IMG/VR virus record: IMGVR_UViG_3300045988_063132
Span: 32,001-96,000 of that record
DNA from: a virus
Length of the DNA stretch: 64,000 bases
Strand: one strand, 5' to 3'
Both the position numbers and the translations under genes were made by a program. Under the pieces are notes generated by a model. That model was given only the letters and a program-made list of their open reading frames with translations. It searched no databases and was not told where the DNA came from. Positions 8,820 through 50,100 of the stretch are shown here, one piece after another (position 1 is the stretch's first letter; every line of letters begins with the position of its first letter).

Positions 8820-8856
8820 GTAAGGAGAGAAATCTCCTTACTTTCACGACCTTTTG
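8820..8856 (+). terminator. rho-independent terminator
   Basis: 9-bp perfect stem GTAAGGAGA / TCTCCTTAC with GAAA loop, followed by TTTCACGACCTTTT. Confidence 0.55.
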
Positions 8857-9098: not shown

Positions 9099-9608
9099 TT
9101 AATTACCAGCTAGAGCGCCCAACCCTTCATTGGAAGGTGAAGAGATAGTCCAAGATTCACGAAACTTTTTAAGTTTCTCCTCAGAAATGAGGTTCCTATG
9201 AACCATTCTATGGCAATTAGGACATAAAGTTATTAAGTTTGTAATTTCATTTTTACCACCGTTAGATACAGGTATAATATGATGAACATCACAAGAAGTT
9301 TTATTCCAACCGCATATTGCACAAGGTTGTAATAATAGAAAATTGTAAAACGATCTAGTAATAGTATTATTAGATTTCATTCTTTTACGATAATCTTTTA
9401 ATTTACAAGCATTTGTACAATACTTTGCTTTAGAAGATTGTGCTTCAAATTCCTGTTCACATACAATACATTTACATTTATATTTCTTTCTATGTAAATT
9501 TCTGTATTTAGCAGCACATGAAAGTGAACAAAATTTTGCATTTCCTCTGTTTACCTCTCGTAAATCAGCTTGGAATTCATTATTACAATATAAACATTCT
9601 TTTTTCAT
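9099..9608 (-). CDS. HNH homing-type endonuclease (169 aa) with N-terminal CxxC zinc-ribbon pairs
   Basis: HNH motif CDVHHIIPVSNGGKNEITNLITLCPNCH; two CxxC...CxxC pairs in the N-terminal half; free-standing on the opposite strand within the plus-strand block. Confidence 0.85.
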   Translation of the reverse strand: MKKECLYCNNEFQADLREVNRGNAKFCSLSCAAKYRNLHRKKYKCKCIVCEQEFEAQSSKAKYCTNACKLKDYRKRMKSNNTITRSFYNFLLLQPCAICGWNKTSCDVHHIIPVSNGGKNEITNLITLCPNCHRMVHRNLISEEKLKKFRESWTISSPSNEGLGALAGN

Positions 9609-9901
9609 ATAACTATAACGTATGTGGAGATAAAATGTTCTAATAACTTAAAAGAATCTGTCCCTCCAGCTCCACGCTCACAAGAGCTACAAGGGAAAAC
9701 AAAACTAGGATTTTTGATCGTGTTGACCGTGCGCCAAGTTTTTAAATTTTAGAACGGTCAAAAGGGGCTGCATGGATTTGACTAGCAAATTAGAGAGATA
9801 AGATAGGTTCATTGTGTGTTTAAATGGCAACACTATGTTTGTCACTGATTATTCTTGCGTAGCGTAAGAATATGATGCGTGCTAAATACGAAAGTTAGGG
9901 A

Positions 9902-9971
9902 TACTCTTTAGTTCAACAGGTTAGAATCGTAATTTTATTACAGAATGTGGGTTCGAGTCCCACAAGAGTAA
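9902..9971 (+). tRNA. tRNA-like gene with canonical T-arm but non-canonical or truncated anticodon arm (possible pseudo-tRNA)
   Basis: 7-bp acceptor TACTCTT/AAGAGTA, D-arm GTTC..GAAT, T-arm GTGGG-TTCGAGT-CCCAC. Only ~18 nt remain for the anticodon arm plus variable loop. Confidence 0.45.
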
Positions 9972-10007
9972 CAATTAACTTATGTTTAATTTCTTAAAAG
10001 TAATCAG

Positions 10008-10385
10008 ATGAAAAAGATGACTTTAAGCCAATTACATGGTAATCTAAAGACTTTCAGTAAAGAATTTATAGGAGCTGGAAGTAGAAATAGTGTAGTTGGA
10101 TTGTATCGGAAACTTATTGAGTTAGGAGCAATTCCATCCAGTAAGGAAAAGGATAACAGTCTTATTAGCTCTAAGCAAAAGATTGTTATTCTATGTGTTA
10201 ACGATGGAATTAGGAGTAAATTCGCTCGTATCTCATTGCATGAAAGATCATGGTGGGACTATTGGCATAACAAAGCACACAAGCATTGTAAGCCAGCTTA
10301 TATTACTTATAATGTACCAAAACAAATGAGTACAGTAATAAGTAACTTAAATATTAAAGAATTAGAAACCCTAATCCCAGAGTAA
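10008..10385 (+). CDS. hypothetical protein (125 aa)
   Basis: ORF track. Confidence 0.5.
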   Translation: MKKMTLSQLHGNLKTFSKEFIGAGSRNSVVGLYRKLIELGAIPSSKEKDNSLISSKQKIVILCVNDGIRSKFARISLHERSWWDYWHNKAHKHCKPAYITYNVPKQMSTVISNLNIKELETLIPE

Positions 10386-10386
10386 T

Positions 10387-10581
10387 ATGGAACTATCTTA
10401 TTGGATTTATTTTAAACCAGGTGAAAAAGATAAGCTTAAACAAATTATCGATGAAAATCCTAATCCTTTAATGGCAAATATTGCTATTCAAGAGGAGTTT
10501 GGTGTATCACTCACCGAAGCTGAGAAAATTATTGAGGTGTATAACAATAAAATTAATAAAACATGTCATCAAGAATCATAA
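10387..10581 (+). CDS. hypothetical protein (64 aa)
   Basis: ORF track; translationally coupled to neighbours. Confidence 0.4.
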   Translation: MELSYWIYFKPGEKDKLKQIIDENPNPLMANIAIQEEFGVSLTEAEKIIEVYNNKINKTCHQES

Positions 10582-10997
10582 CGCTTAATAAACCAGGTTT
10601 ATATGTTGCAGAACACAATTCTACTGGTAAGCAATTTTTAGTAAGTATAGGTGGTGAATTACCTATGTTGCGTGTAATTAATATAATCAATTTATCTGAT
10701 TTTGTTAGTGGTTTTTATGCTGATAATAAAGATAAACAAAAATTACAAGATGACATGGAAGCACATCCTAATACATACACTTATACTCCTATTCAAGTTA
10801 AATTAGAAAAAGAGTATGAAGAAGTAAAAGAGGATATTCTTGATTTATCTAAATATTCAACATTAGTTGAAAATAAGGATAAATTATTAGGAATGGATGA
10901 TAATATGGCAGTTATTACTATATGTAAAGATGAAGGTCTTGATGTAGCTATTGCCACTGAGATTTGGAAACAATTCAAATTATCATTACGACCGTGA
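10563..10997 (+). CDS. hypothetical protein (144 aa)
   Basis: ORF track. Confidence 0.5.
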   Translation: MSSRIITLNKPGLYVAEHNSTGKQFLVSIGGELPMLRVINIINLSDFVSGFYADNKDKQKLQDDMEAHPNTYTYTPIQVKLEKEYEEVKEDILDLSKYSTLVENKDKLLGMDDNMAVITICKDEGLDVAIATEIWKQFKLSLRP

Positions 10998-11500
10998 ATG
11001 CAGATGAAGTAAAAAAGTATATTTACGATAAATCTGCAAAGCTATCACAGCAGTTTATTGACTTCATTAAAAATGAAGGAGTTCCTAATTATTTATTACC
11101 ATCATTTGATAATAATAGTGGTTATAGATGTGATTGGAACATAATAGGTGGAGAAGAAGCAAAAGAATATTTTAAACCTTATTATAAACCAATAAGTGAT
11201 AAATTTATTCTTAGCTTAGAACAAAGAAAAAACGTACAAACTTGGTTATATAGAGTTAGTACTAAACTTTTTCTACCTGAATTGATGGTAGGAAGTCCTA
11301 TCACAACCGATAAAGTACAGCTACGAATAGCTACTTCTTTAATCGACAAATTAAACATTCCAAGACAATATCGAGATTATCTATTTGATAACACTATATA
11401 TTGTTTTTGGATTCGTAAACGAGCATATAGTAATTTCTTTTGGCAAGAAATAGTACAGCTTCCGTTTGCGCCAGATTATCGTTTAAATATTAAGTATTAA
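10964..11500 (+). CDS. hypothetical protein (178 aa)
   Basis: ORF track. Confidence 0.5.
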   Translation: METIQIIITTVNADEVKKYIYDKSAKLSQQFIDFIKNEGVPNYLLPSFDNNSGYRCDWNIIGGEEAKEYFKPYYKPISDKFILSLEQRKNVQTWLYRVSTKLFLPELMVGSPITTDKVQLRIATSLIDKLNIPRQYRDYLFDNTIYCFWIRKRAYSNFFWQEIVQLPFAPDYRLNIKY

Positions 11501-11506
11501 ATGATA

Positions 11507-11545
11507 ATAGGGTAAGAGAGATTGGGTTCTCTCTTACTCACTAAT
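11507..11545 (+). terminator. strong hairpin, terminator or attenuator, upstream of the sigma factor gene (no U-tract)
   Basis: 10-bp stem TAAGAGAGAT / (G)TTCTCTCTTA around loop TGG. Confidence 0.35.
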
Positions 11546-11555
11546 CCGTAGGCCT

Positions 11556-12122
11556 ATGAAAGAAGAAGAAAAGATTCTAATTGAAAAGGCGAAGCACGGT
11601 GATGAAAAGGCCTTTAAGCAATTATATGATAATTATTATCGTTTAATACGATATATTATCTATGATGCGATAAAAGATGAAGAAGCAACAGCTGATTTAT
11701 TATCTGTTACTTTTACTAAGGCCTTCAAACGTCTCGATTATTTTGTTGAAACTATTTCTTTTGAAGCATGGTTAAAAACTATTGCAGTAAATACAGTCAT
11801 TGACTATATTAGAAAGAATAAGAATCAACAAGATAATATCTCTATAGATAATGAGGATAATACAATTCAAATATCTAGTGATAATGATCCCGAAACTGAT
11901 TTAATTAAATCAGAGTCAATAGATATTCTTAGAATTGCATTAACTCGACTTAGAGCCAAATATAGGAACCTTCTAGAACTCAGATATTTTGGTAATCTAA
12001 GTTATGAAGAGTTAAGTGCTGAGCTTGGTATACCGGTTGGAACTGTAAAGTCTGACTTAAACAAAGCTAAGCATAGACTCAAGTATTATTTTCAAAAAAT
12101 TTCAAAAACTAACAAAACATGA
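11556..12122 (+). CDS. RNA polymerase sigma-70 family sigma factor, ECF-like (188 aa)
   Basis: Region 2 YDNYYRLIRYIIYD...DLLSVTFTKAFKRLDYF...FEAWLKTIAVNTVIDYIRK. Region 4 LLELRYFGNLSYEELSAELGIPVGTVKSDLNKAKHRLK. Confidence 0.85.
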   Translation: MKEEEKILIEKAKHGDEKAFKQLYDNYYRLIRYIIYDAIKDEEATADLLSVTFTKAFKRLDYFVETISFEAWLKTIAVNTVIDYIRKNKNQQDNISIDNEDNTIQISSDNDPETDLIKSESIDILRIALTRLRAKYRNLLELRYFGNLSYEELSAELGIPVGTVKSDLNKAKHRLKYYFQKISKTNKT

Positions 12123-12496
12123 CAACATTCATTGTATCTATGCTAGTAATTATCGGTATTGTTGCAATTGCACGATATTACGGTAGTTCGTCAATGGCAA
12201 GCAATTTATTGCTTACTTTGGCATTTTCTGTTGTCGTGGGTCTTGGTATTCAATTTGCTACTAAGGGAAACCATAGTAAAAAAGAGAATGCTAAGATTGA
12301 AAATTCCATTGCAGTTAGTAATCCTGTATCCACACAGTCTGTTTGTACAGTGTTGGAACCTGTAAAAACTAGCCATTCTGGGGCTGTGAGTCAGGTACAG
12401 GATTATAAAACTGTAGTAAAGGAGTTTCCACGATTAAATTCCAAAAAGCTTGCGTATACTGAACGTATAGCTCCCCCATTCCCAGATTCATCCTAG
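12119..12496 (+). CDS. membrane protein (125 aa, two N-terminal TM helices), translationally coupled to the sigma gene by an ATGA overlap
   Basis: ORF track; hydrophobic segments MLVIIGIVAIARYY and LLLTLAFSVVVGLGIQFA. Confidence 0.5.
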   Translation: MTTFIVSMLVIIGIVAIARYYGSSSMASNLLLTLAFSVVVGLGIQFATKGNHSKKENAKIENSIAVSNPVSTQSVCTVLEPVKTSHSGAVSQVQDYKTVVKEFPRLNSKKLAYTERIAPPFPDSS

Positions 12497-12582
12497 ATGA
12501 ATATAACGGGATCACATTATTAGCTTTATAAAATAATTTATTAACTTTTAATATTCGAAAAGGCGAATTAAACATTATCAAA

Positions 12583-13977
12583 ATGGGAAATAATAAGAAC
12601 AAAGGTCAGAAGACTGACGATAAAACAAAGAAAACTACTGCCGCTCCTGCGGCTGCACCGGCTGCACAAACTAAGAAAGAACAGCCGAAGACGGGATTAA
12701 AGGAAGATAAAACTCCTAAACCCGCAGCTCCTACAGCTCCTAAGAAAGAGGAAAAGGAGACAAAAAAGCCTACTACTGATGCTACTGGTACAGTAGAAAA
12801 TGTAGCAGCAGAAGAAGTAAAGAAACCTGTAGCTTCTCCGTTAGAATCACCTAAAGTAGATTCCCTGATTTCACTTATGGGTCCTAATGATCTGATGGAT
12901 GCGAATCATGCTGCAGAATTCTTATCGGCGCTTGAACGTCGTACTGCCCGGATGGATCGTAGTAAACCTATTACGATTCAGATGGAATCCATGCTGGATT
13001 ACAATATGATGTGGTATGCTGTACGTTTGTCTGTACAATCATTTGCACAGAAACGTGAATGTAATATGCTTACGCCGAATGATGAACTTATTGTTCAGCA
13101 AGCCATTGATACGGCTGCATCTATGGGTGTTGCTCTTGAAGCTCATCCTACAGATGATCCCAATCAGATGCGTCTTGAATTTAAGGATATTTCCCCTGAA
13201 ACAAAAGCAGCAGCTGATGCAGAGAATGCCGCATCAGGTTTAGCTTCAACAGTTAAACCACCTAGACATGTAAAACTTACCGAAGAACAGATGAATCCCC
13301 TGAATTGGAAGAATGATGATGAAGCGAAAGCTGCAATCACTCAAGATCTTCAAGAATCAGGAGAAACTCCATCTAACAAATTCTTACGTATCTTGGGTAA
13401 AATCAAAACATATCGTGAGAATACTACAGAAGATCCCGTTCAGAAGGGAATCTGGAGTAGTGCTAACTTGGGAGCTCTTGCAAAAGAGTATTTCAACATT
13501 ATCGGTAAGAAAGGTATTGTTGTGCTCTCTGGACTCATGTCTTCTACCACAACTTCGTTGAAGTTAGGTCAGACTATGATCTTTGCACATTCTCTCTTAC
13601 GGAAGAATATGAAAGGTCTGAATGATCAAGATGTAGTAGACTTGATTAAAGCGTTTATTGAAGTAATGCACGCAGATCCTGCACAGCCTATCGAACAAGA
13701 TCCTTGTGTAGTAAAGGGTATTTTGGCTCCAACTCGTGATACGTTTGTACGTATTGCGTTACAAAAGCCAGCAGAAGACGAACTAATGGATTGGTTCAAG
13801 AAGATTATGGGACCGTTCTATGATATCTATAAAGATGAAGTAGGTTCTAAATCTGATGAAGATTTTGCTCTGAAAGCAGCAAATAAGATGATCGAAATAC
13901 GTAACATGTATGTCGATAAAGAAGCTGCATTCCCGCTCTTTACAAAAGAAGATTTCAAGGCTGTAATGGGTAAATAA
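12583..13977 (+). CDS. hypothetical protein (464 aa) with a K/P/A-rich disordered N-terminus
   Basis: ORF track; N-terminal KTKKTTAAPAAAPAAQTKKEQPKTG...PKPAAPTAPKKEEKE resembles histone H1-like tails; GC-richer codons. Confidence 0.6.
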   Translation: MGNNKNKGQKTDDKTKKTTAAPAAAPAAQTKKEQPKTGLKEDKTPKPAAPTAPKKEEKETKKPTTDATGTVENVAAEEVKKPVASPLESPKVDSLISLMGPNDLMDANHAAEFLSALERRTARMDRSKPITIQMESMLDYNMMWYAVRLSVQSFAQKRECNMLTPNDELIVQQAIDTAASMGVALEAHPTDDPNQMRLEFKDISPETKAAADAENAASGLASTVKPPRHVKLTEEQMNPLNWKNDDEAKAAITQDLQESGETPSNKFLRILGKIKTYRENTTEDPVQKGIWSSANLGALAKEYFNIIGKKGIVVLSGLMSSTTTSLKLGQTMIFAHSLLRKNMKGLNDQDVVDLIKAFIEVMHADPAQPIEQDPCVVKGILAPTRDTFVRIALQKPAEDELMDWFKKIMGPFYDIYKDEVGSKSDEDFALKAANKMIEIRNMYVDKEAAFPLFTKEDFKAVMGK

Positions 13978-13990
13978 CCTATTATATCAA

Positions 13991-14374
13991 ATGAAAGGTA
14001 AATTTGCTTATTTAGCAGTATTCGTTGTAGGTCTTATTATGTCCTACAATACTAACATTTTCAAACCCGAAAGTGTTACGGCAACAGAAACCATTAAAAC
14101 GGTTCAGTTACCCCCAATTCCAGGTAATTTTAAACTTAACCTGGATTTAGAGACAGGTAAAAGTATCGTGGAAAGTAATATACCCGTTACAAGTACTGAT
14201 ATAACTGTCAATCACCCCACGAAAATCGTGGAAAAGGTAGTGTATAAAAAATCTAAACCCAAAGTAGTATATGAAACAAAAACTGAGGTACAAACGAGAC
14301 CGGTAATGTTCACTCTACCAACTCCCCGCTCTCACAAATTTGTACCTGAGTATCCTAAAAGTGTAGAGAAATGA
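13991..14374 (+). CDS. hypothetical protein with N-terminal signal peptide or TM (127 aa)
   Basis: ORF track; MKGKFAYLAVFVVGLIMS. Confidence 0.5.
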   Translation: MKGKFAYLAVFVVGLIMSYNTNIFKPESVTATETIKTVQLPPIPGNFKLNLDLETGKSIVESNIPVTSTDITVNHPTKIVEKVVYKKSKPKVVYETKTEVQTRPVMFTLPTPRSHKFVPEYPKSVEK

Positions 14375-14469
14375 AGCAAAAAATAACTAAAACTAATATA
14401 GTATCATTAATTGGTATTATCTTATTCTATTTATTTTGTTTATTTTTTGCTTATTGTATTAGTGATTAA
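14371..14469 (+). CDS. small hydrophobic protein (32 aa)
   Basis: ATGA overlap with the preceding stop; TM-like LIGIILFYLFCLFFAYCI; read manually. Confidence 0.25.
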   Translation: MKQKITKTNIVSLIGIILFYLFCLFFAYCISD

Positions 14470-16819
14470 CTATGTGCTTACCGTAGAATGGCACCGGGGA
14501 AAACGAGTCTCTCCCCCGTAGTAAGAAGCAGGGCATTATATATAGTGGTATTGTAGCTGTACACTCTAAAAGCAATAAGACAGCATATATATATTAGGAA
14601 TATCAAAGGCCAAGAGGATTCGTATATATAGATAAGTAATACAGGATATGAGAATATGATAACAGCTAACACTGTGATTCAAAAGGTAATATGATAGCTT
14701 ACTATGGATTTATTACTTTATCCGTGAAGAATTAGTAAGAAAATGGGATAGCGTGCTAAACCCATAAAATCTCAGAGAACCGTCTGGCGGAGATTTAAAA
14801 AACGCGATCTAGGTCAGCAGACACGAAGACAAATTCAGCAAAGGTATCGGCATCCTAAAGTAAATATAGTTATGAGATGTATTTATGAGTGTATTGAAGT
14901 CTACACAAAGGAGAAACCTATGTCCGTGGGTACAATCATGTACGAAATCAAGAAGGGACTAAACACGAGTTGCCCCTTAGTTAAACATCCAAAAGTTTAC
15001 TAAGTTTTGACTCCTGACTAACGTTCTTGGGTGTGTCCAAAGCATCCATTCTGAATCTATTATTGGAAGATATAGATAAGATAAAAATGCTACTGTAGTG
15101 TTCTCTACAAGGTACCAAATGGTTTAAATTGGAACGTATGTTTAAATACATATAAAAGTAGATATGAAGGCAGAGAGATTAATCGAGGGTGCTATTAGGT
15201 GCTACGTGAAGAAGTAAAACGGTACAATTCCGTAATCTTTTACTCTTAGAAGTAAAGGATAATAGTCTGTATTATTACTTTGAAACATATGGCTGAGAGG
15301 CTATGATCCATACAATGAACTTTAAATTCATTAGAATATAATAAGAATTCGAGACTTTTATTATATTTAAGTATGACAGATTATCCGGATTAGGTGCCAA
15401 ACCTATACTTAATAGAACGATTAATACAAATGTGTCAGTGTTTGCTTCAAGTTATGACACAATAATATATGGAAAGAAGCAGGTTGTAAAACGTGTCCTA
15501 TAACACTACTACAGAATAACGACATCCTTTAGCAAGATGGTTACTTCGCAAGAAGTGAGAGGGATCTCAATAATTTACGTTATCGAAAAGTTAAATACGC
15601 CGGTAGAAACACCGTTACCTGAGAAGAAAGGTAGAAGTTCAATCAGATCTCAGTCGGCTTTCCGAGAGATAAAAAGCGAAAGTTGGGCTAATGTATAGTC
15701 AATGGGCTAAATTCAAGTCTGTTAATCCAGAGAAACGTAAATGTTATGATATTTACCTGAATCCAACGATTCATCACTGGCCCGAGAGTTAACGTCACTC
15801 TTAAACAAAAGCGAGAATAACATGTTTAACCTAAGTAGTGGCTACGCCCACGAAATAATAAATCCAGGGGAGTCCCCGCTAGGGATAGTAGAATCTGCTG
15901 TTGTATAGTAGTATATGTTTCCTGACTGCGTCCTTGGCAAGCCAACCGTTATTGCTAAATAAAACTAATAGAGTGTATTGCGCAACAATATATGTTCATT
16001 AGAAAGCGTTTCATGAATCTTCATAGACTGGATACCTGTCGTGCGGAAAGAGTAGTGAAAAGTAGGTGGAAGTCCTCAATATTCGTGCTTGTAAAACAAT
16101 CCTATGGACGGTTATATAATAATATATATTATTGTATGTAATTCCGTATAGGAAACTTAAAACCGTTGCTGCATTTGTAGGGCAGAACTAGTTAAGTAAC
16201 GTTAGAAAACGACCGTATCTGTAACGGATTCGATAAAGTGGTAAGTATTAACTTCTGGGTAATTATAAGCTACATGACAGGCCAATCTGCATGTGCAACT
16301 GTCTTGCAAACAGTTACTTTGTATTTGTGATTACTTGCTGAGATTAACCCCGAGACGCCGGGAAATACTAAGTTAATATGATGAGCAATAGTTCCTTTCT
16401 CTTAAGCGTAAGAGAATTGTAAAATCTAAAGTAATGGTATTATAATATGTATATTAAATGTCTTAGATCTCATTAGTCTAAAGAAAAAGCTGTGCAGTAT
16501 CAATAGTATGATAAGCTATTAATTTATTATATGTAGACACTCGTATAAGTAATATTAATTCTGGTATCCGAACTACTCTGTAGAAGCAAGGAATGCAGAA
16601 AGGAAGAGGAAGTATCTACCTTGATTTCGATGTAAGTAAATCATTAATATGAAGATTATGCGTTTAAAACGAAAATATTTATACTTTGTAAAGGATTGTA
16701 CTTGAATGTACGTAGACGATTAGACACATCCTCTATATAATAAAATCTATACAAAGAGAGCAAAACTCGTTAATTTAAACTCATAAAATATGTAAATCAA
16801 TTGTTTAACATCTCCGTAG
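14470..16819. other. 2.35-kb coding-void, GC-enriched region; candidate large structured ncRNA(s) or regulatory or origin region
   Basis: No ORF of 60 aa or more on either strand apart from one 64-aa minus-strand ORF at the edge. All three stop codons occur in every frame, so recoding is unlikely. Many local hairpins. GC is visibly above the flanking coding DNA. Confidence 0.5.
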
Positions 16820-37548: not shown

Positions 37549-40290
37549 TTAACTTTTAATACAATGATTCATTTCATCAGTTGGAAATTCTTTAGAATCG
37601 TTAAACTCATTATTTGATTGATTCTTCGATTCTTCTTCTGGTTTCCTATGTTCTTCATTATCTTCAGTTACTTCAGTAGCTTCAACGTTTGTAACATCAA
37701 ACGGATTGTCAATAGGAACAAACATTTCATTTTGTAAGAATTTAGGTTCAAATTCAATAGAAAGATCTGTAGCATCTATCCTCTGATTACCATCAATAAA
37801 AGAAGTAGTAGTACCTTCATTAATGGTAAAACCTCTTTCCTTGAAGTTGATGGAATTGGTTGCAGCATATACAGGATAATAATCTGTTTCATTTTGAAGT
37901 CTACCAACAAGTTTGAAAAGAGTATTGTTATACTGTAAATAAGGAACTGGTAAACCTGTAGTGGTATTATAGTCTCCTTGTTCTGTAGTAATGTACACTG
38001 TTTGACCTTCATGTAATTGCTGTCTGTTTGGTGTAGCAGATTGTACTATATCTTCTACGCCTTGTAAAGCTCTAAATGCATAATCCACATATTTATTAAA
38101 ATCTAAAGAGTTATCGTTAGAACGTTTTAACAAGTCTTTCAGATGTTGATTGTAAGTATAATCTACACCATCCACAGTATAAGATAAATTACCCAGTACT
38201 TCAAAAGGTACTAAATCTAAAGTAGCATAAATACCTGTACCTCTACCACCACTAGTATAGAAGGAGTATATAATTAAATCTTTTGCAATATTTCTAACTT
38301 CTTCTGAACTATGTTCTAATAGATCTCTCCAAGCATAAGTGTATGCGTTCTTTGCATCTGTATCTCTTAATTTCAATACTGTTTCAAATTTTTTAGGTTT
38401 ACCTTCTACATTTATGCCAGGTATAAGCATCTTCAGTAACATGTTGTCGCTTAATTCTAGATACCTAGTACCAGTTAATATTTGATTTCTAAGTCTATCT
38501 ACTCTGTCTACAATAGTGTTATTACCATAGAACATGTCTTTCAAATTTATATTGTTTTGCTTACAGTATTCATTAAAAAATTCCGCCTGCATCGCAAACT
38601 TCATTTCTGACATATACTTGGTTATATTGTTTGATTTTCTATCATAATAAGTATTCGATAATTCACCAAACTTATTGACCATTTTTAAGAAACCTGGACT
38701 GAACTCTATCATTTCATTCTTAAGTAAGTCGAATAATAGACCTGTACTATTGTTTAGTTTTCTGCCTAAGAATGTTTTATTATACACATCTTCAGCATTA
38801 GTAAAATGAGGATCATCCATCATCCTTTCAATGTTATGTAAAGACAGTATCAATTCAGCTTGATTTTTACCCATTTTACCGGTATCCACCTGAGAAGCCA
38901 ACACCATGTTACTTAATGCCTTACTATAGTTCTGAATATCTGTAAAATATTCATATATAATCACTTGATTTCTATACCAATCTGTAGAGAAGTTTTTATT
39001 ATAATGATCTCTCAATTGTTCTTTTAACCATTCAGCATTAAATACTAAATCTTTTACATTGTAAGTATTACCATTCCATTCTATAGTAAGAGTTCCATCA
39101 TCTAAACGACTGTAGAAATTCTTTTTATCAAGCTTGGCTGCTTTTTCGTATTTGTTTAATATAGAATCCTTCCATCGTTTATCATTTCGCTCTTTCTTAG
39201 TAAGACCCATCTTTGATGAACCTCTTCTAATGGACTCATTTGCAATCTCTTTCAATACCGGTTGAGGTAAAAAGTAAAATTGATTCAAACCAACACCAGA
39301 GGAAGTTAATAAAGCTACTACATCATAAGTATACGAGTTTACATTTAAACGAGTAATATAAGAGTCTTTTGCAGCATCTACGTGGGCATTGATCAATGCA
39401 GAAGTCCAATCCATGATGGAGATACCATTAGCATCAAATTTATCATACAAATTACCTATATTTGGTATAATACTAAAAAGATTTCTCTTTGTATTGACCT
39501 TGCCTCTTCTTCTAGATATTTCTATAGTTTTATCAAGATCCAATTTTGCGATTTGCATAATTACACGGAAGGTATTAATCAAAGCCATAGGTCCAATACC
39601 AGCGTCTGCACCAACGTTTTGTGTTTTAACGTTTTCTTGATATAAAGGGAATAATGGTTCAAGATTGTTATAATTCTTATTGATATTAGAATAAGAATCA
39701 ACCACTTTTACAGCTTCTTTTAATGCGTCTGTAGCAAAGTCCAAAGGTACTGTTGCATCCATATAATGATTTGAAGAAGTTAAAGTCGTTTGGAATACTT
39801 CTAGCAATCTATTTTCAATCTGTCTGTGATCATTTAATTGCCATTTATTTTTACCAGAATTCTCTTGCACAAATTCTTCAAAAGTCATTTTTCTATCTTC
39901 GAACTTGAAAGATGATGCTAATTTAAGAATCTTTTTATTAGGAGCTAATTCTGGATCTCTTAAAATTTGATTAAACTTTCTTTGACCTATAAAGATTGAA
40001 TATTTATTTTTCATACTCTTGAGTATATTAATAGAATCTTCAGTTAATTCTCCATTTCTATTAATATCCACCAGTACAGATTGTAATATTTTAGGTATTT
40101 CTACTTTTGCTTGTTTGTAGAAATCTGTATTAAACCAACGATATCTATGATCGTATACTTTTTTCAAGTATTCTTCTTCGTTCAAATAAATCGGATTACC
40201 TAATTCATCTAATCCTACATAATCATCAATGAATTCTGTCTTATATAATTTACCACCTATTACATCATAATTATATCTAGCTAGATACAT
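37549..40290 (-). CDS. giant virion-type protein, 3' exon (913 aa as annotated; continuous with 41200..51543 after intron removal)
   Basis: Separated from the upstream 3447-aa ORF only by a group I intron plus homing endonuclease gene; the upstream frame is open for 9 codons before the ATG. Confidence 0.65.
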   Translation of the reverse strand: MYLARYNYDVIGGKLYKTEFIDDYVGLDELGNPIYLNEEEYLKKVYDHRYRWFNTDFYKQAKVEIPKILQSVLVDINRNGELTEDSINILKSMKNKYSIFIGQRKFNQILRDPELAPNKKILKLASSFKFEDRKMTFEEFVQENSGKNKWQLNDHRQIENRLLEVFQTTLTSSNHYMDATVPLDFATDALKEAVKVVDSYSNINKNYNNLEPLFPLYQENVKTQNVGADAGIGPMALINTFRVIMQIAKLDLDKTIEISRRRGKVNTKRNLFSIIPNIGNLYDKFDANGISIMDWTSALINAHVDAAKDSYITRLNVNSYTYDVVALLTSSGVGLNQFYFLPQPVLKEIANESIRRGSSKMGLTKKERNDKRWKDSILNKYEKAAKLDKKNFYSRLDDGTLTIEWNGNTYNVKDLVFNAEWLKEQLRDHYNKNFSTDWYRNQVIIYEYFTDIQNYSKALSNMVLASQVDTGKMGKNQAELILSLHNIERMMDDPHFTNAEDVYNKTFLGRKLNNSTGLLFDLLKNEMIEFSPGFLKMVNKFGELSNTYYDRKSNNITKYMSEMKFAMQAEFFNEYCKQNNINLKDMFYGNNTIVDRVDRLRNQILTGTRYLELSDNMLLKMLIPGINVEGKPKKFETVLKLRDTDAKNAYTYAWRDLLEHSSEEVRNIAKDLIIYSFYTSGGRGTGIYATLDLVPFEVLGNLSYTVDGVDYTYNQHLKDLLKRSNDNSLDFNKYVDYAFRALQGVEDIVQSATPNRQQLHEGQTVYITTEQGDYNTTTGLPVPYLQYNNTLFKLVGRLQNETDYYPVYAATNSINFKERGFTINEGTTTSFIDGNQRIDATDLSIEFEPKFLQNEMFVPIDNPFDVTNVEATEVTEDNEEHRKPEEESKNQSNNEFNDSKEFPTDEMNHCIKS

Positions 40291-41199
40291 TTTATCAACC
40301 GCTACTACCTTATATCTCTATAAGGGCTAGACTATATCTTCACCTTACGGTGCTCCCCATTTCGCCTTTCGGCTACACAGCGTGTGTACGCTGACTCAAA
40401 TCATATTGAATTTTATGAATCATTGAAGGAACCTGTTCAACAAATGGTTTTACAATGTTTATAAACTTTATTCCTTCTTTTGTTCCACAGCATAAAGAAT
40501 AACTGTTTTCTTTTTTGCCTTCGTGAAACATATAAAAATCAATATTCCAAACTTCTTTAAAGTAATCTATTATTATTTGTAATTCTTCTTTTGGCATACA
40601 AGTTGCAATTTTTATATAGAAACCATGAACTTTACCATTAGTTGTTCTATAATTTATATGTCCATCATCCATATACCAAATTGCAATTCCTTTAGCATCA
40701 AGTCTATTTAACAATTTTCTATTACCTATTTTTTTATAAGGTTTGTAAAAAACTCTTCTTAAGACCTTTACAAAAGGTATAATATTTAATTGTGTGTAAT
40801 AAACTGTTTTACCAGTATTATAACCTTTAACACTGACGTATTCTTTTAAACCGTTGTTTCGTAAACCTGCTTCTTTAAGTTGTTCTATTTTCCACTCAAG
40901 ATAATCGCGTTGTTCTTCACAATGACTTAATTTAAATACGTTGTTATTACTTATTGTTCCATCACCAAGTAAAAGAGCTATTAATAAATTTCTAGATTCT
41001 TTAGTTATTTTTGTTTTCATATTTGCTATCCATTTAGGAAGCTTCAGTTGAGTATTAGTCGTTGAACCTTCCGATTAGTTATATAGATAACGATCGGCTT
41101 GGCTGCTGGTTGCCCAATCCTTTGGGTTTTTACTACGCTTAGTACCTTAGGCTCTAAGGGGTTTCCAGCAATTAAAGGAGTTTTACTTCAACTATGTTG
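40291..41199 (-). mobile_element. group I self-splicing intron with embedded LAGLIDADG homing endonuclease gene
   Basis: Minus-sense core elements: P UUAAUUGCUGGAAACCCC (plus 41158-41175), Q ACCAGCAGCCAAGCCG (41094-41109), R GGUUCAACGACUAAUAC (41053-41069), S AAGAUAUAGUCUAGCCC (40324-40340). These match the Tetrahymena-type consensus (AAUUGCGGGAAA, CGCAGCCAAGUCC, GUUCACAGACUAAA, AAGAUAUAGUC). GC-rich structured RNA lies between two halves of one giant gene. Confidence 0.7.
40373..41020 (-). CDS. LAGLIDADG homing endonuclease, double-motif (215 aa)
   Basis: LLIALLLGDGTIS and GIAIWYMDDGHIN motifs. Confidence 0.9.
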   Translation of the reverse strand: MKTKITKESRNLLIALLLGDGTISNNNVFKLSHCEEQRDYLEWKIEQLKEAGLRNNGLKEYVSVKGYNTGKTVYYTQLNIIPFVKVLRRVFYKPYKKIGNRKLLNRLDAKGIAIWYMDDGHINYRTTNGKVHGFYIKIATCMPKEELQIIIDYFKEVWNIDFYMFHEGKKENSYSLCCGTKEGIKFINIVKPFVEQVPSMIHKIQYDLSQRTHAV

Positions 41200-44100
41200 T
41201 TAATCGAAGTCCGCACCGGTTAACTTAGTTAATTCGGCAGGTAATACGATAGTATCCCCAACATTCGATGGCAATACGTCTACTATAGTAATAGGTAATG
41301 TAGAGTTCATACCCTGAGTAGGAATACGATAAGACAGAACTGCTAAATCCTGATTATCTAAGATGAATTTTTTAGCCTCTTCAAAGTAAGAAGTGTTATT
41401 CTTTTTTGCTTGTTCTAATAAATAATCTTTTGGCAGTACATCTTTGAATAGATTTATAGATACAATTGCTTGTAATCTATTATTTTCATCCTTAAATCGA
41501 AGTTCTTTATTGAATTTATATTCATATTTGCTAGCGTCTACTTCAGCAAAAGAATCTTTGTAAGCAAAGTTAGACATCTGAATCATGGAACCACCAGGAG
41601 TATTTATATCTATGGTTTCTTTCTTAATCATAGATATGATACGACTTTGAATCCAGGCTAATGCAGGTATACCAGATAATTCAATATAGTAATCTTTGTT
41701 ACCATCTTCATTTTCAATGGTTTTTAAAACATCAATAAGATTTGATGGTAAGTTACTATTTATGGCATCATCCTTTAACATTTGAACAAACTTGTCACGA
41801 TTAACGGTCATATAGGTTTTACCATTCTCTGTTATTTCGCTTATCCCAAACTGTTCATATATGTTATTTCTACCAATATCTGATAAAGCTGAAATAGCTC
41901 CTACGTAGTCATCAATTAATTGCTTACCAGAATATTTTACGCCTTCGTATTCATACACATCATTGTCTTCTACTCCAGCAACACCAATTTTAGCCATCTG
42001 AGTACCTAACGAGATTCTAGATACATGGTGAGGATCTGTTACCAACTGTTTACCTAAATACTTGAATGATTGTTCATATACAGGAATTTCTTGTAATTCT
42101 GTATTAGGTTTACCATCTACATAGAATGTACCTTTTTGTCTTAAACCTGATTTTACAGAAGTATCAAATTTAATCATGTCTACATCTTTATCATTCATTA
42201 AATCATATACTTTCTGTAAGTCTCTACCTTTTGCTACTCTTTTGAATACAGTAGCCAATGACATCTTATCGTAGATGGGTATCTGTAATCCATTAATGAA
42301 ATCATAACCAAAATGTATGTATTTCAATGGTTGCATTACTACAGAATAAGCATACAATTCATCTTCTAATGATAAAGGCTCATCTGATTCCATTAAATTA
42401 TAAGCTTCTTCTTTTTCTCCATTCCACTCACCATTCATGATGGCAAGTTTTCTAAACATCTTTGGGCTAATAAGTACCTGCGCATCTGTTTGGTCAGTTT
42501 CAAGATAACCATTTAAACGTTTATCAGCTTCTTTAACCACCTCTTCTTTCAATTGTTCATCAGTCATATCAGCAAATCTACCAACACGTCTTTCTCTGAA
42601 CATCTCAAACTGTTTCCAAAGTAAACCATGATTGTCATCAGTACCTACGTACTTCGACATCATTTCATTATACATTACTCTGGATTCTACAATGTTTGAA
42701 TTGAAAATAGCAGTTTTATACTTGTGCGTATCAAAGTCTAAGAATCCTTCTGGCCAATTTTCACGTAATACAGATTTTGTTGAAGTTAATGCAGAATAAC
42801 GTTTTACTCTATCATCCAACATTGCCTGATAGTCTTTACTACCTTTATAAAACGCAACATCCCCTGATACAAGTTTTTCAAATTCATACACAGCGATTGC
42901 TGAATTTATAGCATAATCTGCAATAGCTTCTGCTAAATCAATTTTTTCATTAACCTTTTGTTTTACAATAGATGCTGGTAAAAGTCTATTACTAAATATA
43001 AGATTTGTATTTATCCTTTTACTGTCGTTTTCTTTTATAAACTCATCATCCAGATACTTTTCGTTACCGTTTATCAATTTCTGATTAATAAACTGTTTTA
43101 TAGTGTTGTTAACTTGTTGAATAAGACTCTCTTCAATTACTTTTCTAAGACCTTTACTATTAATATCAAAGAATTTATCATCTGATAATTTATTTTGTAA
43201 AGATGAGAAATATCTGAATTTGTAACCATTACCTGTTAAACGCATTGCACCACCTTTAACAATGTAATGGTAGTTTTCAACAAGTTCTTTATAATTCGTA
43301 TCTTTCTCTTTCATTAAAGAATCCTGTTCAACTTTTGACATCTTGTTCCAAGATTCTTCAGAAACACCAAGTCTATTTAAGAAGTTATTCTTAGCATTTA
43401 TTGCAGCTTGAATTGTAGAGTATTCATTGATAGCATAATTTACAAATAAATCAATAGTTTCTTTATTCAAAGAACCATTTTGAATAGTAACCTCTTGACG
43501 ATTCAAACCTGTTATAAAATAGAATGTACGTTTGTTTGCAAGAGTTGGTAAAGGTAAACGATTGTTTCTTACAGCATTGAATTTAAGTAATAAGTCTTCA
43601 TTTGGTGCTATATCCAAATACCCACGTCCTGTATCATAGCCATCTTTATCAATCATAGATAGCATTGTATCAACGTGAACATTAGATCTTACTTTGGGAT
43701 CAGTCATCTGTTGCAACCAAAATGAAGATTTATTATAAGTTACACCATTTATCTGAGTAAAGAAGCTATCGTCTTTTAACCATTCTTCAAACATAGAAGT
43801 AATGGTGTTATTTTCACTATACGCATAAACCAAGTTGCCATCTGGTCCTAACACACTATCATCTTCCGCTGTAGGATTTGCAGCAACATATGCTTTTGCC
43901 AATTCTGCTACCGATTTTTCTTTGCTTAGTAAATTTAAAGCATGACTAGTTACATCTTCTATTTTGTCGTTAACCAAATTGTAAAACAAACCTTGTTCTC
44001 CAAATAATTGGTCTAATCCTACAGGATCTTTAGAACCAACTCTAGGTACACCATTTATAAGATTTTTTAAAGCAACGTTTAGATTGCTATTAAAATAATG

Positions 44101-47100
44101 ATTATTTAATAAAACACCGATCGCATCACCATCTACAGCAATGTTCACATTGTTAAGTATGCGGACTAATTCTAGTACATTCTCGGCATAATCGTTTTTA
44201 AGGAAATTGTGCTTTTTAGATTTATTTTTTAACTCTTTATAATCTGCAATAGCTTGTTGTAAAACATTCTTATTTGCAAATGTACCATTTACACCGAATG
44301 TTGCTGACCAGTTCTGTTCAAGTCTATTAGAACGTTTATTAACATCAGCGTCACCATAAGTAATAGTATAAGAAGTTAGCTCTTTACCTTTATCATTGGT
44401 ATCCTTACCAAAGTAAGCGTTAATAAATCTATTTCTGTGTTTTTTAAACGTATTCCAGAATCTTGTTTTCAACATTTCATCCTCGTTACCACTTTCATCC
44501 TTAGTGGTAAGGATTTCATACAATTCTGAATACATATTTATCTTACTAGAATCTCCTTTGGCTTGTCTGATAGTACTGGTTTCATCTGCTTTTTTCTTCA
44601 ACAGCTCCAACATTTCATCTATAGACTTTGCATTGTGAATTGTACTAAAGGCATTAAACCAAGCTACATCGGGATTTATATATACAGGAAGGAATGTTTC
44701 TGGATCTAATGTTTCAGAATCTTTTAATGTTAAAAACATTACTCTAATATCCGCTTGCGCATTTTCTTTTGCTGAAAATTCATAAGCGGATCTTATTTCA
44801 TCATTAACTAAGTCATTTAGATCATCTTTTTCCTCTAGTTTAGATTCTACTCTACGTATATTAAATCCTTGCAACTTAACATCAATAAGAGGTCTAAACA
44901 CTGTATCAAAGTTATCAAGTATTTCATTATAAAGATCTACCTTTTCTTCGTAGATAGCTCTTTCTAATTCACCAAACGCTTCGTTTTGTGAGGCTGCTAA
45001 ATGCTTATCTCTGATGTCAATTAGTTGATCTTTTACTGCCTTAAAACTTAATCCTCTCTCTAAACTTTCTATATTCTGTATACCATTAACATCTATGGTC
45101 ATAGAAGTTAAAGTACTAACAATATTTCCAAGTAAAGAGCTATTGTAAATTTGATGCAATGTGACTCCATTAACAGTAAGAGGTGCATCCGCATTTGCAT
45201 ATCTTTGATTAAAATTAGTTAATGCCGCTTTGTTAATCTTAGCAAATTTATATTTACCGTTTTTAATAGCATTAAAAAATCCATCAATATTATCTATTTT
45301 GGTTTTGTTTAAACCTAAGAATGATTTAATAAAGTTTTTAATATCTGAAATAACTCTACCTAACTTACTGTGGGAATCGGGAGTATTATTGATAACATCT
45401 TCTCGGAAACGTTCAGCTAAAAATTCTTCCACTTCATTATCGTTACGATTAAATAGTGAATATTCTTTTCTAGCTAAATTGTACATTCTGGCTTGTTCTT
45501 CCGGACTCAACAATAATAATGATACTCTATGAAAAGCTTCATGATAAGCAGCACCAGCCGCTGGACGTTCAAACAAGGTTACACCATCCTCATTCATTAT
45601 TGACCATGCCCAACCAGGTCTACCAGATTCTCCAATTATACGAATTAATTGATCTACCAATTTAATATTACCACCAGCTCTTTTACCAAGCATTCTACGA
45701 TAATTTAATAATTCTTTTTCTAAATCAGAAGTTTGTTTAACATTATCATAAACCTGCATTGATACAGAAGGTTTCTTACCAAAAGTAGTAAACTTATTTT
45801 TTGGTTTTTTTCTAGTAAAACCAATCATTTCATCAGTAATACCGGCAGCTTTATTTAACTCTCTTGGATCTAATGGAGCGTTGGTAACAGGAGCTTCTTT
45901 TACTGGAGATTCTTTGATTTTTCTTTCTCTTAATTTAAGAGTACCTTTACGTATGTCATTATAAATTTCAAAATTAGGTATAGAATCTGAAATTTGATCA
46001 TTCATTCTAGATAAGAAATCAATCATCTCATCAGAATCCATTTGATCAAAATTGTTTCTATAGTCATTTACCAAATTTTGGTATTCGGCTGCGTCTTTTA
46101 CATACGCTCCTAATTTAAACGGAGATGTTTCCTTAGTAATCTCAACAAGAGGTTTTTCAGTATCCGTTGCTTTCTCATCTACTTTTTCTGGCACAGTTTT
46201 TACTGGAGAAATTTGTTGAGATGCTTCTACTGGAATTACTTTACCTAAATTTAAAAGTATTCTACTTACCGTATTCCCATCTGGGAAAGTATAATCCAAT
46301 AAATTTGATAACTCTTCTTTTGTTATATTCGCACTAGGTATTGCTTTACGTTTTGTCAACAATGATCTAACAGCACTATCATACATCAATTTGCTAGATA
46401 ATGTTGATAAATTATTTATAAGTCTATCATAAACCTCACGTAATTTTTTCACCTCTTCCGTTTGCTCAATGGAATCAAAAGGATTATTAGTAAGCAAACC
46501 AAAAGTATTTGTATTTTTTGGTTCAGGTTTAGCTGTTTCTTTTCTTTTAGACTCTGCAGAAGGTTTTACAGTTTTTGGTGGAGCAATTGTAGCCTTTTTA
46601 ATAGCTTCATAGTACTTGGGATTTTCAATTTGTTTATTTTGTTTGTTGACTGTAACAGTTTTTTGTGTATAAATCTTTAAACCTGTTTTATCAACAGTAA
46701 CCAATTTACCCTCATCTTTTACTTTTTCCTGAGCTTCTGGATGTTCACTTTCATATTTTATAAGATCATCTATACTCTTGTTATACACATCTACAAGGGC
46801 TTTTCTTATATTCTGTGAAAGTTCTTCTTCATTTAACCCTTCAATATTTAACAGTTCTTCTCCTTTTAAGGAAACCAATTTAGTTCCTTGTTTTACTAAA
46901 GCTGCTTTATTTGCATACTTTTGAGCACCCGGAATTTTTGCAGTTATAGTACTACCGTCTGGTAAATTGTTTATCTTTTCAGATAAATTTTCTACACTTT
47001 TAAATACGATTTCCTCTTTTTCAAAGACTTCAGAAGTTTTCTCTTCCTTCGGAGAAGGAACACTATCTGTAGTAATAACTCTCTCGGTTATAGGAATGTT

Positions 47101-50100
47101 TTGTACTACCAAATAAGATTTTGAAATTAAACCTTTAGATATATCTAAATCAGTACTTAAAAAATCATTATCAATGATTGCATTTAAATATCTAGCACCA
47201 CTTTTAAAATCAATAGTCTTATTACCAGCTTTAATTTTAAAGCCGTATTTAACCGGCATGTCATTGTTTAACATCGCTCTAGAAATAGCAAAGTTCTTAT
47301 TTACAGACATCCATTTGGCAAATTTTGCAATAGAATCTTCATCATTTGGTCTCAGCGCTTCGTGTTTTGCACCAAATCGTACTATATTACTATTGTTTGT
47401 ATCAAAGTAAAGTATCTTACTAGGTTCACGCTTAGAATTTACTGTAGATTCCCCAAAGTAAACCAAACTATTTAAGAACTGAGCGTAAGTGAGGTACCCA
47501 ACATTAACCGGTTCAATTCCATAAGTATTATCAGCAGGTATAGCATCCTTTAATCTAATTTTTCTAGAAGATAAATCAGCAAATACCCTAGCAATAGATG
47601 TAGCTAATTCCAAAGGTATTTTATTGGGATTAAGTTTTGCAACATAACCCTCTTCACCAGTAAGTTGATATTTACCAGGTATTATTAAATAAGGAGAACC
47701 TGGAGTACCTGTAGCATTTGCTGTAAGTAAATATTCTGACTCTCTAGAAGGATCTATATAGAAAATAGAATTGGTTGCATCTGCTATACCTATTCTCATG
47801 GGAGTACCATTAGGAAATACATATTCCCCATCCTTATTCAATTTGAGATCCAAACCCTTTACTAAAGTATTAGAAGTATTAGGTTGATAATTATTATAAC
47901 CCGGAGTACGTACAATATTACCTGCTGGCACTTTTACGTTACCTTTATTTTTAAGCAGTTCTAGTACTAACTTTGTTTTTTCTTTACTTGCGTTTGAAAA
48001 TGCAAACACTTTATTAGAATAACCTTTATTAGTAATAATGCCTTGTATAGGTAAATATTGAATTAACTCATTTCTTTCTACTTCAGATAAATTGTCCAAA
48101 GCTTCAATAGGATTAGATGATTTTAACAGAGTTAAATACTTCTTTTTTGCAGCCTTTTCTTTAGCGTATCCTGATAAATTTTCAATATTATCACTTATAG
48201 TAAAGTCAATAGCAAATTTACTAACATCTGTACTAGGATTATTGATTATAGCATTGAATTTATCATCAGATGCAAGTCTTACTCCCTCTTTGTAGGTATC
48301 GTCTTTTGCATAATCCTTTGCTAATTTTGACTTAGGATTGGTAATTTCATAATCTTCATTTTGACCCTCTTTTAGATTTAGTTCTTGTCTTGGAGAAGTA
48401 TCTTCTAAAAGTTTATTTTGTTCTGCAGCCAATTGTGCTAAACTTATTGTGCCACCAGATTTGGATTCAATGTTATAGTTTAACAATTCCCCTTGACCAA
48501 CTTCAATAGGCTTACCATCTTTATCATTTAAAGTATAAACAAAACCATACTTCTCTGATTTCTTAGTAGCTTTTTTATCTATTGTAAACTCTTTACCATC
48601 TTTTGAGATAACCTTATCATTTACATTACTAAAGTCAGCATCTACAGGATTGGGAATACTTTTTGCAATTTCTTCGTCTTCCTTAGTCTTTTTATCTCTC
48701 AGATAATTAATTTCGAAGTCTTTATTATCTATTAAATTTTTTATATTACTTCGTTCTTCCTTCGCCGATACTGGTAATTTGTTTAAATCTCTTATTAATT
48801 GCTTTTTCTGTGCTTCAGCGATTTCTAATTGAGATCCTGTATCACCTTCTTTTGCAGAAGTATAAAGACGTAAAGTATCTTCAGATGTATTTGGATCATT
48901 TATAACGGAATCTAAAGACGTTTTATAATCATCACTACTGAAATAATCTTCTACAGCTTTGGTTTTCTTTTCTATCGCTGCTAATTTGTCTTCTATTGCT
49001 TTTATTGATGAATAGACTTTTTCTGTTTGAAATCGTTTGTCATACAAACCTTTTACATAATCTTTGTCTGTAGTAAGATCTTTCAATCTTTTTATATCTA
49101 CTACTTCATCAATTGCATTATTTGCTAATTGTGCTTGTTTTATTGCATAATCATGTATGTTTGTTATCTGAGAATTACGATTTTCAAAATTAACTGCATG
49201 TTTTATTACAAAATTCCTAGCGTCTTCTATTGCCTTTTTTAGTTCATTTTCATCTGCAGCCTTTCTTATAGCATCATACTTTTCATTAAGCGTATCTGTA
49301 TATTTTACATTACTAGTAAAATTTTCTTCTACAGCTTGTTTTAAATCATTATTATTAGACAATAATGAATTTATTTCACCATTTAGTTTTCTATTTCTAA
49401 GATTGTTGATTTGTCTATTTGCATCTATTGTGTAGATACTATTCTCAATATCTTGTCTAGTTTGTAACCAAGCTCTTCTTTGTTCCTCAGATTCAAACTT
49501 TTTAGGTTTGGGTAAAATTTTATTTATTTTATCCTTTGCATCTTTTTTAGAAGATGCGATAATGTCAGCTTCTTCAGTTCTACCTGATTCTCTAAGAGCT
49601 CTTTCAAATCTATCTACAGTACTAATTTCAGCTACTTTATTATTTACTGTAACTACTCTAGAAGAATTATTTAAAATGTCTACAAATTGCTTATAATCAT
49701 CTTCTAAGCCATTTTTAGTATTTTGTATATAATCATCTTGATTTCTAAGCTGTTTTAATACCGCTTCAGATATTTCCATTTGATTCTTAGGATCATATGA
49801 GGCTACTCTAGCAAATAAATCTTTATTATCTGTGTACAAAGTATTTAATACTTCAGCTCTAGATTTAATACCGTCATACTGTTGTTGAGTTATAGCCCCT
49901 TTAGTAAGAGCCATATTCATACCAGCCATCAAAGATTCATATTCTCCAGAAGCAATAAAAGGAACAATAGATCTATCTTCTTTTACTTTGGAATGTACAA
50001 ATCCCCCAAGTAAACCAGCAATAGCACCCGCTGCTCCTTCTTCCAAAGCCGATTTAAAAGATTCCTTGCTAAATAATTCTGTGCCGAACTTACCTTTACC

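Follow-up and report, generated by a model that had tools for sequence, protein, structure and literature searches.

Group I introns are already known from close relatives of the phage analysed here. Yutin et al. 2021 (PMC7886860) reported group I introns in core genes of the Delta-group crAss-like phages (Suoliviridae), with an intron-encoded LAGLIDADG endonuclease-maturase in the transcription gene block according to the legend of their Fig. 3, and disruptions within the DxDxD motif in the Zeta group; a 2023 review repeats these intron findings. The stretch of DNA that we analysed, called the window below, is 64,000 nucleotides (nt) long and covers positions 32,001-96,000 of the IMG/VR record IMGVR_UViG_3300045988_063132, and all coordinates given are those of the window. 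Two open reading frames (ORFs) on its minus strand are a single gene split by a group I intron of 903 nt at 40300-41202. The best explanation, in which we have high confidence, is that a mobile group I intron interrupts a single giant virion RNA polymerase (vRNAP) gene in a Culoivirus-like crAss-like phage of the human gut (Suoliviridae, 'Delta' group).

The intron shares with those of the Delta and Zeta groups (PMC7886860) the phage order, the Delta-group family (Suoliviridae), the intron class and a general preference for the most conserved genes. The presence of a group I intron with an endonuclease in core genes of the Delta group is thus already published and is unsurprising to a specialist. 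However, PMC7886860 gives no splice sites, no RNA structure and no position relative to DxDxD for the polymerase gene, whereas for the intron in the window we could place the boundaries to the base, support the structure by covariation and locate the insertion site inside the catalytic motif. In the literature that we searched, neither the splice sites nor the structure nor the motif-relative position of this intron was described.

The classical phage introns, namely those of T4 td, nrdB and sunY and those of the Bacillus phages SPO1, AR9 and PBS1, have in common with the window intron the self-splicing P1-P10 architecture (predicted here), an endonuclease ORF looped out from a peripheral helix and an insertion at a conserved catalytic site. 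The P3-P6 region of the window intron had blastn matches in PBS1, AR9 and other phage intron regions. The host genes of the classical introns belong to nucleotide metabolism or encode DNA polymerase, whereas the host here is a single-chain two-barrel virion RNA polymerase. The T4 introns carry GIY-YIG or HNH endonucleases, not LAGLIDADG endonucleases.

Intron boundaries and host reading frame

All features of the intron and its host gene described below lie on the minus strand. An earlier reading of the window from its letters alone (the sequence-only reading) had noted an ORF of 3447 amino acids (aa) and another of 913 aa, separated by a gap of about 910 nt and belonging to one gene. The ORF list bears out this layout, with the 3447-aa ORF at 41200..51543, the 913-aa ORF at 37549..40290 and an inner ORF of 215 aa at 40373..41020. 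The interval 40291-41199, which that reading had given for the intron, is indeed the gap between the two ORFs, but the intron proper is 40300-41202.

To place the boundaries we relied on intron-less relatives. A megablast search with 38500-43000 as query found cr1_1 (MT774380) and cr55_1 (MT774376), both classified as Crassvirales, Suoliviridae, Culoivirus, which matched this 4.5-kilobase (kb) query in two pieces with 97.5% identity and 80% query coverage. Both lack exactly these 903 nt. The counterpart in cr1_1 is one continuous coding sequence of 4551 aa, which agrees with the claim that the two ORFs are one gene. In the longer alignment to cr1_1 (locus L001), window positions 52000..41204 correspond to 3001..13797 with 98.4% identity, and 40299..37636 correspond to 13799..16462 with 97.7% identity.

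With the arrow marking the junction, cr1_1 reads ...GCGGACTTCGAC↓GTTGATAAAATG..., and the window reads ...GCGGACTTCGAT↓903 nt↓GTTGATAAAATG.... The base at position -1 is U in the window (GAU, then the intron, then GUU) and C in the intron-less allele (GAC↓GUU), which is a synonymous difference, so the change from C to U supplies the U that is obligatory at the splice site. It had been guessed from the letters that exon 1 would end at a U and that exon 2 would begin after a G that precedes the ATG at 40290 by at most about 27 nt. When cr1_1 and cr55_1 were aligned, both splice sites came out where they had been guessed, the first after the U of ...GACUUCGAU and the second 9 nt upstream of that ATG.

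Exon 1 of the vRNAP gene therefore runs over 41203..51543 and has 3447 codons, ending in ...LTGADFD with GAU as its last codon, as indicated by the ORF list and the collinearity with cr1_1. The intron at 40300..41202 begins with UAACAACAUAG... and ends with ...GUAGUAGCG; its extent is supported by its absence from cr1_1 and cr55_1, by the two half matches to RF00028 and by the covariation described below. Exon 2, also placed by collinearity with cr1_1, occupies 37549..40299 and has 916 codons plus the stop, beginning with GUU GAU AAA AUG (VDKM), which makes the ATG at 40290 an internal methionine codon rather than a start. The intron itself opens with UAA, in the reading frame of exon 1. After the predicted splicing the exons are in frame and give an ORF of 4363 aa with no internal stop, close to the roughly 4360 aa first estimated, and at the junction the protein is identical to that of cr1_1, ...LTGADFDVDKMYLARY... 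(GADFDVDKMY). The predicted ligated junction is GGACUUCGAU↓GUUGAUAAAAUG, which can also be written GGTGCGGACTTCGAT↓GTTGATAAAATGTATC, and the corresponding intron-less target sequence of the cr1_1 type is ACTGGTGCGGACTTCGACGTTGATAAAATGTATC. The RNA-only flanks of the intron have a guanine-plus-cytosine content of 0.39-0.43, the exons one of about 0.30 and the endonuclease ORF one of 0.24-0.30, so the enrichment once described for the whole gap holds for its RNA-only flanks.

Host gene

A 675-aa query spanning the junction matched a single PDB sequence, 6VR4 (E 1.4e-29), which is gp66, the DNA-dependent RNA polymerase of Cellulophaga phage phi14:2. In this match TGADFDVDKMY of the window protein aligns with the catalytic TGSDFDIDKMY of gp66, and a second aligned block lies in exon 2. 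Exon 1 residues 2995-3447 aligned with gp66 residues 949-1377 (E 1.2e-24) and the match stopped exactly at the exon end, while the alignment of the joined protein continues past the junction through IDKMY and residues 1484-1677. The window protein thus covers gp66 residues 949-1677, including the catalytic GSDFDIDKMY, and the alignment is unbroken at the intron site. The chain of gp66 in the PDB has 2194 residues, compared with 4363 aa for the window protein, of which roughly the N-terminal half lies outside the gp66-matching region.

Pfam and PHROGs searches of both host ORFs gave no match, so the identity of the host gene rests on the PDB sequence search. Judged by this homology, the host gene encodes a virion RNA polymerase of the crAss type, the gp66-like group with two double-psi beta-barrels. 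The intron lies within its catalytic DxDxD motif, between codons 3 and 4 of D-F-D-V-D. The 'giant virion protein' of the sequence-only reading can be refined in this way, with the word 'virion' depending on the homology to gp66. By analogy with gp66 (PMC7886860), the polymerase would be packaged in the virion and injected.

Some further features of this gene and its surroundings were observed. An HExxH motif (AAYHEAFHRV), read by eye, is present in the central part of the 3447-aa exon-1 product, outside the gp66-matching region, and would be in keeping with a zincin-like metalloprotease. Towards the end of exon 2, cr1_1 has 563 nt (188 aa) extra, with window 37613-37635 corresponding to L001 16463-17048, and the extra 188-aa C-terminal segment searched alone had no Pfam match. 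Both forms of the exon-2 ORF, 913 aa and 1101 aa, occur among the intron-containing metagenome contigs. In contig L096 (3231-3632) exon 2 is broken again about 300 nt past the intron, giving ORFs of 100 aa and 1093 aa, and strong divergence from the window sets in after about 200 nt; another insertion, or a C-terminal region acquired by recombination, could explain this second break. The 1093-aa variant is recorded with PF12694 (cpYpsA). The gene next downstream, 31552-37542 on the minus strand, encodes a 1996-aa protein with an ART-PolyVal domain (PF18760, E 3e-19) and an exonuclease-like PHROG match as well.

Structure of the ribozyme core

The four core elements P, Q, R and S named in the sequence-only reading were each found once on the minus strand, P at 41162-41175, Q at 41096-41108, R (GUUCAACGACUAAUA) at 41053-41067 and S (AAGAUAUAGUC) at 40330-40340. 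The complementarity claimed for them also held: P and Q form P4 through UGCUGG (41165-41170) and CCAGCA (41104-41109), and R and S form P7 through the 5' strand GACUA (41056-41060) in R and the 3' strand UAGUC (40330-40334) in S.

Both pairings expected of the guide sequence, P1 and P10, are present as well. The whole internal guide sequence lies at 41185..41199. Its part GUUGAAGU (41185-41192) pairs over 8 base pairs (bp) with the exon 1 strand ACUUCGAU (41203..41210) to form P1, in which the 5' splice-site U, U41203, makes a U.G wobble. The part CAAC (41196-41199) pairs over 4 bp with GUUG at the start of exon 2 to form P10, which reaches up to 7 bp in relatives. Among relatives the P1 guide and the exon strand change together, as in cr116_1, which has AUUUCGAU/GUCGAAAU.

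The remaining helices are as follows. The 5' strand of P3, CUCCUU (41175..41180), pairs with GGGGAG (40353-40358). The P4-P5 domain (41101..41170) is supported by covariation in P5 and by the minimum free energy (MFE) fold, and its P5 stem, CCC/GGG, closes three hairpins taken from the MFE fold (41145-41159, 41131-41144 and 41113-41126). P6 is a hairpin, CCGAU...AUCGG (41071..41097), supported by covariation. P7.1 was predicted by the MFE fold and consists of ACUCAA (41048-41053) and UUGAGU (40394-40399), becoming UUAAAU/AUUUAA in cr116_1. Its 3' strand and the adjoining hairpin CAGCGU-ACAC-ACGCUG (40378-40393) overlap the last endonuclease codons. Then come P7.2, GCC-GAAA-GGC (40364-40373), the 3' strand of P3, the covarying P8 hairpin CACC-GUAA-GGUG (40341-40352), the P9 hairpin (40308-40325) downstream of the S element, and the tail UAGUAGC followed by the terminal G (omega G) at 40300, which closes the intron.

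In this predicted structure P7.1 closes a loop that contains the endonuclease ORF, with the 5' strand of P7 on one side and the 3' strand of P3 on the other. The sequence-only reading had the endonuclease gene between R and S, and the P7.1 region is its more exact location. A position in P8, as in the Rfam half-alignment, was rejected because the comparative analysis puts the 3' strand of P3 and a short P8 downstream of the ORF. Two extra helices, P7.1 and P7.2, in the interval from P7 to the 3' strand of P3 are a trait of subgroup IA introns. Helices were predicted at the P7.1/P7.2 position here, with P7.1 partly covarying and 75% of its cells in the alignment of relatives paired, and the layout as modelled resembles that of subgroup IA. 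The ORF-deleted intron folded with z = -3.06, and 0 of 100 shuffled sequences folded equally well. MFE folding also gave unstable alternatives, so the structure rests on covariation.

Covariation across related introns

Related introns were retrieved through the endonuclease protein, which gave cr116_1, bajarodcaudo virus 1 and cr131_1 in GenBank and about 50 IMG/VR contigs. After the splice junctions had been mapped and the ORFs removed, 27 distinct introns were aligned by MAFFT, and P3, P4, P5, P6, P7, P7.1 and P8 were scored as defined in the window sequence. The analysis showed that 91.2% of the cells form standard pairs, compared with 29-42% when the 3' partners were slid by 1-3 columns, and that changes on both sides occur in 18 of the 37 pairs. 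The covariation score was 0.418 against at most 0.11 for the slid partners, and none of 500 shuffles reached it.

Compensatory changes were found in 5 of the 6 pairs of P3 (96.9% of cells paired), in all 5 pairs of P6 (95.4%), in 3 of the 4 pairs of P8 (98.1%) and in 3 of the 5 pairs of P5. P4 showed none, with one pair alternating between G.U and G-C and the others invariant across all 27 introns, and P7 did not vary in any of the 27. For P1 and P10 the pairing was scored sequence by sequence, since MAFFT misaligns P1 between the site classes described below. All mapped relatives have U at position -1 and G as the last intron base, and in all of them joining the exons restores D[F/Y]DxD.

Rfam matches and ORF-less introns

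The search proposed in the sequence-only reading, RF00028 on the reverse complement, gave matches in two halves with the ORF between them. In a scan of 40200-41300 a 5' half, which begins with P1 and runs up to and including the 5' strand of P7, matched at 40959-41240 (minus strand, 43 bits, E 2.2e-9), and a 3' half, which holds P9 and the other strand of P7, matched at 40308-40505 (minus strand, 42.6 bits, E 2.8e-9).

A 276-nt ORF-less intron is present at the same site in four IMG/VR contigs (L087, L088, L090 and L091), and it matched RF00028 over the full length with 78.6 bits (gathering score 50, E 1.1e-18). It shares its first 52 nt exactly with the window intron, and also the P7.2, P3 3'-strand and S regions; P7.2 and its flanks are the same in L087. 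These mini-introns suggest that the endonuclease ORF may have been gained or lost within one ribozyme lineage. A search of IMG/VR with the 5' junction found no copy of the window intron, just the mini-introns and one other relative, and the matches share the first 52-61 nt with the window intron.

Homing endonuclease

The inner ORF has its own AUG, 182 nt into the intron. Its 215-aa product matched PF03161 (LAGLIDADG_2) with E 8.9e-22 and 78.2 bits (cutoff 25) over profile positions 3-167 of 168, and phrog_11023 with E 1.7e-21. Two LAGLIDADG motifs with acidic residues, LLIALLLGDGTI and GIAIWYMDDGHI, could be read from the translation, so the description of the product as a double-motif LAGLIDADG endonuclease was right.

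A public assembly collection has 102 blocks on record with exactly this 215-aa endonuclease. We examined 8 of these places, which come from 8 different samples, and found that the endonuclease was always adjoined by a 3447-aa ORF and that the introns were 99.9-100% identical to that of the window. The ORF downstream had 913 aa in five places and 1101 aa in two, and in L096 there was one of 100 aa and then one of 1093 aa. A 102.8-kb scaffold from sample SAMEA3136746 agrees with the window at every position of the 5.5 kb compared. The recurrence in 8 samples indicates that the intron is no assembly artefact.

Intron-containing and intron-less alleles coexist among phages that are 98% identical, and the intron probably homes by cleavage of intron-less alleles such as that of cr1_1. 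We also considered whether the exon sequence near the site carries a trace of homing. Mismatches to cr1_1 make up 8% of the last 400 nt of exon 1, compared with 1.6% overall. The 12 closest to the junction lie within 100 nt of it and affect third-codon positions. Over the roughly 450 nt that precede the site the synonymous variation is mosaic: of the 8 other contigs examined that carry the intron, 7 differ from the window about as much as cr1_1 does over the 100 nt closest to the site, the -1 base aside, and the eighth (L097) is the same as the window. A clean intron-linked co-conversion tract was therefore rejected; the upstream mismatch cluster is a product of mosaic recombination and was not used as evidence of homing.

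Insertion sites among relatives

The same lineage of intron and endonuclease was found at four successive codon boundaries of DFDxD in different crAss-like phages. The counts come from an automated junction finder run on the related loci L003-L059. Site A, DFD↓xD, had 23 loci including the window, and site D, DFDI↓D, had 1 locus (L048). Site B, D↓FDxD, had 21 loci (for example cr131_1) and site C, DF↓DxD, had 13 (for example L032), with the reservation that in about 12 loci of these two sites the finder saw a P1 of only 4-5 bp and the 5' ends are unreliable, and that in some of these the 5' end had earlier been placed by motif and the site class rests on the reading of exon 2. The matching P1 guide was clear for most loci.

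The site classes interleave on a tree of the endonucleases built by the unweighted pair group method with arithmetic mean. One B-site intron, L009, which is inserted 6 nt upstream of the site in the window, matches the window intron with 98-100% identity from nt 21 to nt 320 and encodes an endonuclease 89% identical to that of the window, while its P1 guide and 3' tail differ. On balance we lean slightly towards the view that the 12 nt encoding D-F-D-x are a homing hot spot with several registers, in which the register would change by a swap of the guide module with the endonuclease target kept constant, so that the intron position would be uncoupled from the endonuclease specificity.

Other elements in the window

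A second group I intron core, without an ORF, is at 8927-9171 on the plus strand (RF00028, 63 bits, gathering score 50, E 1.4e-15). This core had escaped the scan in gathering mode. An HNH endonuclease ORF at 9099-9608 on the minus strand (PF01844, E 2e-13) overlaps the 3' part of the second core on the opposite strand, and around the core there is no plus-strand host ORF of at least 60 aa. Upstream of it is a cluster of structured RNAs at 5796-5895, 8094-8273, 6694-6828 and 8206-8286, all on the plus strand. Two members of the cluster scored above gathering, a Hatchet ribozyme with 76.5 bits (51) and RAGATH-22 with 125.6 bits (120.3), and two scored below it, RAGATH-9 with 58.5 bits and RAGATH-20 with 55.2 bits. 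Transfer RNA genes are present at 9902-9971 and 20251-20322.

Discussion

The proposed course of events is as follows. A single pre-mRNA would be made from the whole vRNAP gene, and the ribozyme in it would fold into P1-P10 with the P3/P7 pseudoknot and with P7.1 and P7.2 between P7 and the 3' strand of P3, where P7.1 would close the loop that holds the endonuclease ORF. Free guanosine would attack after U41203, which makes the U.G wobble with the guide GUUGAAGU, exon 2 would be aligned by P10 (CAAC with GUUG), and the 3' OH of exon 1 would then attack after the terminal G at 40300. Ligation would give ...GAC UUC GAU↓GUU GAU AAA AUG... and a 4363-aa protein with the intact active site GADFDVDKMY, and in unspliced RNA translation would stop at the UAA with which the intron starts. 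The endonuclease, translated from its own AUG, would cleave intron-less alleles such as that of cr1_1 in a mixed infection, and repair of the double-strand break would copy the intron in.

Several points weigh against this reading. Rfam scans of the whole window, in gathering mode and in E-value mode, gave no group I match at the intron locus, and neither half match (43 and 42.6 bits) reaches the RF00028 gathering score of 50; the low scores arise because the 648-nt ORF splits the core, which is a limit of the model and not a missing feature. The P10 of the window has just 4 bp and is 3 nt apart from P1, P7.1 is paired in only 75% of the alignment cells, and one MFE prediction of the ORF-deleted RNA departs from the comparative structure. 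Exon 2 alone had no PDB match at E 0.01. Finally, we infer splicing in vivo, as well as the activity and the target of the endonuclease, from the sequence.

The intron might instead have decayed and no longer splice, the polymerase gene being a pseudogene or dependent on a helper, since the RF00028 scores of the window are below gathering and splicing activity is predicted. We consider this very unlikely. The core helices are all intact, P4 and P7 are invariant, and the endonuclease ORF is complete with both acidic motifs. The intron, 99.9-100% identical to that of the window, is carried by 8 contigs of 54.9-102.8 kb from the 8 samples, and several of these measure about 100 kb, near the sizes of the cr1_1 and cr55_1 genomes, which are complete at 98-100 kb. 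The 12 exon differences from cr1_1 that lie closest to the junction affect third-codon positions, as purifying selection predicts, and vRNAP is required for early transcription in phi14:2 (PMC7886860).

Alternatively, the two ORFs could be independent genes with a free-standing homing endonuclease gene in the spacer between them, giving separate 3447-aa and 913-aa proteins without splicing. In cr116_1, cr131_1, bajarodcaudo virus 1 and metagenome contigs, gene callers and GenBank entries in fact list each piece as a 'hypothetical protein' of its own, and the second ORF starts with ATG. But the break falls inside the catalytic DFD↓VD, which would leave neither piece with a complete metal-binding site, and near-identical phages have an uninterrupted coding sequence into which the insertion is exact to the base. 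Moreover, the 255 nt around the endonuclease ORF are a covarying group I core, and the 9 nt upstream of the ATG carry on both the frame and the homology, which makes two independent genes extremely improbable.

The translational bypass of T4 gene 60 covers 50 nt, and to our knowledge 903 nt is beyond any known translational bypass. Removal of the intervening sequence as an intein, or its skipping by bypass, has a negligible chance of being correct: crAss-like phages do carry inteins, for example in TerL (PMC7886860), but the in-frame UAA at the start and the many host-frame stops contradict both, a Hint/intein domain was not found, the endonuclease has an ORF and an AUG of its own, and the length far exceeds that of known bypasses.

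A mobile group I intron within one vRNAP gene has direct consequences for annotation, since two 'hypothetical proteins' become one 4363-aa vRNAP, and the same split is found in cr116_1, cr131_1, bajarodcaudo virus 1 and many metagenome contigs. The joined pieces are needed for gene models, protein phylogenies and proteomics of this very abundant group of human-gut phages. The pattern of four registers in a single catalytic motif, with guides that have been swapped, is a compact natural dataset on site changes by group I introns and the endonucleases that they encode. Infection would begin with an enzyme whose production depends on RNA splicing, and the ligated junction would be a convenient marker of active infection in metatranscriptomes.

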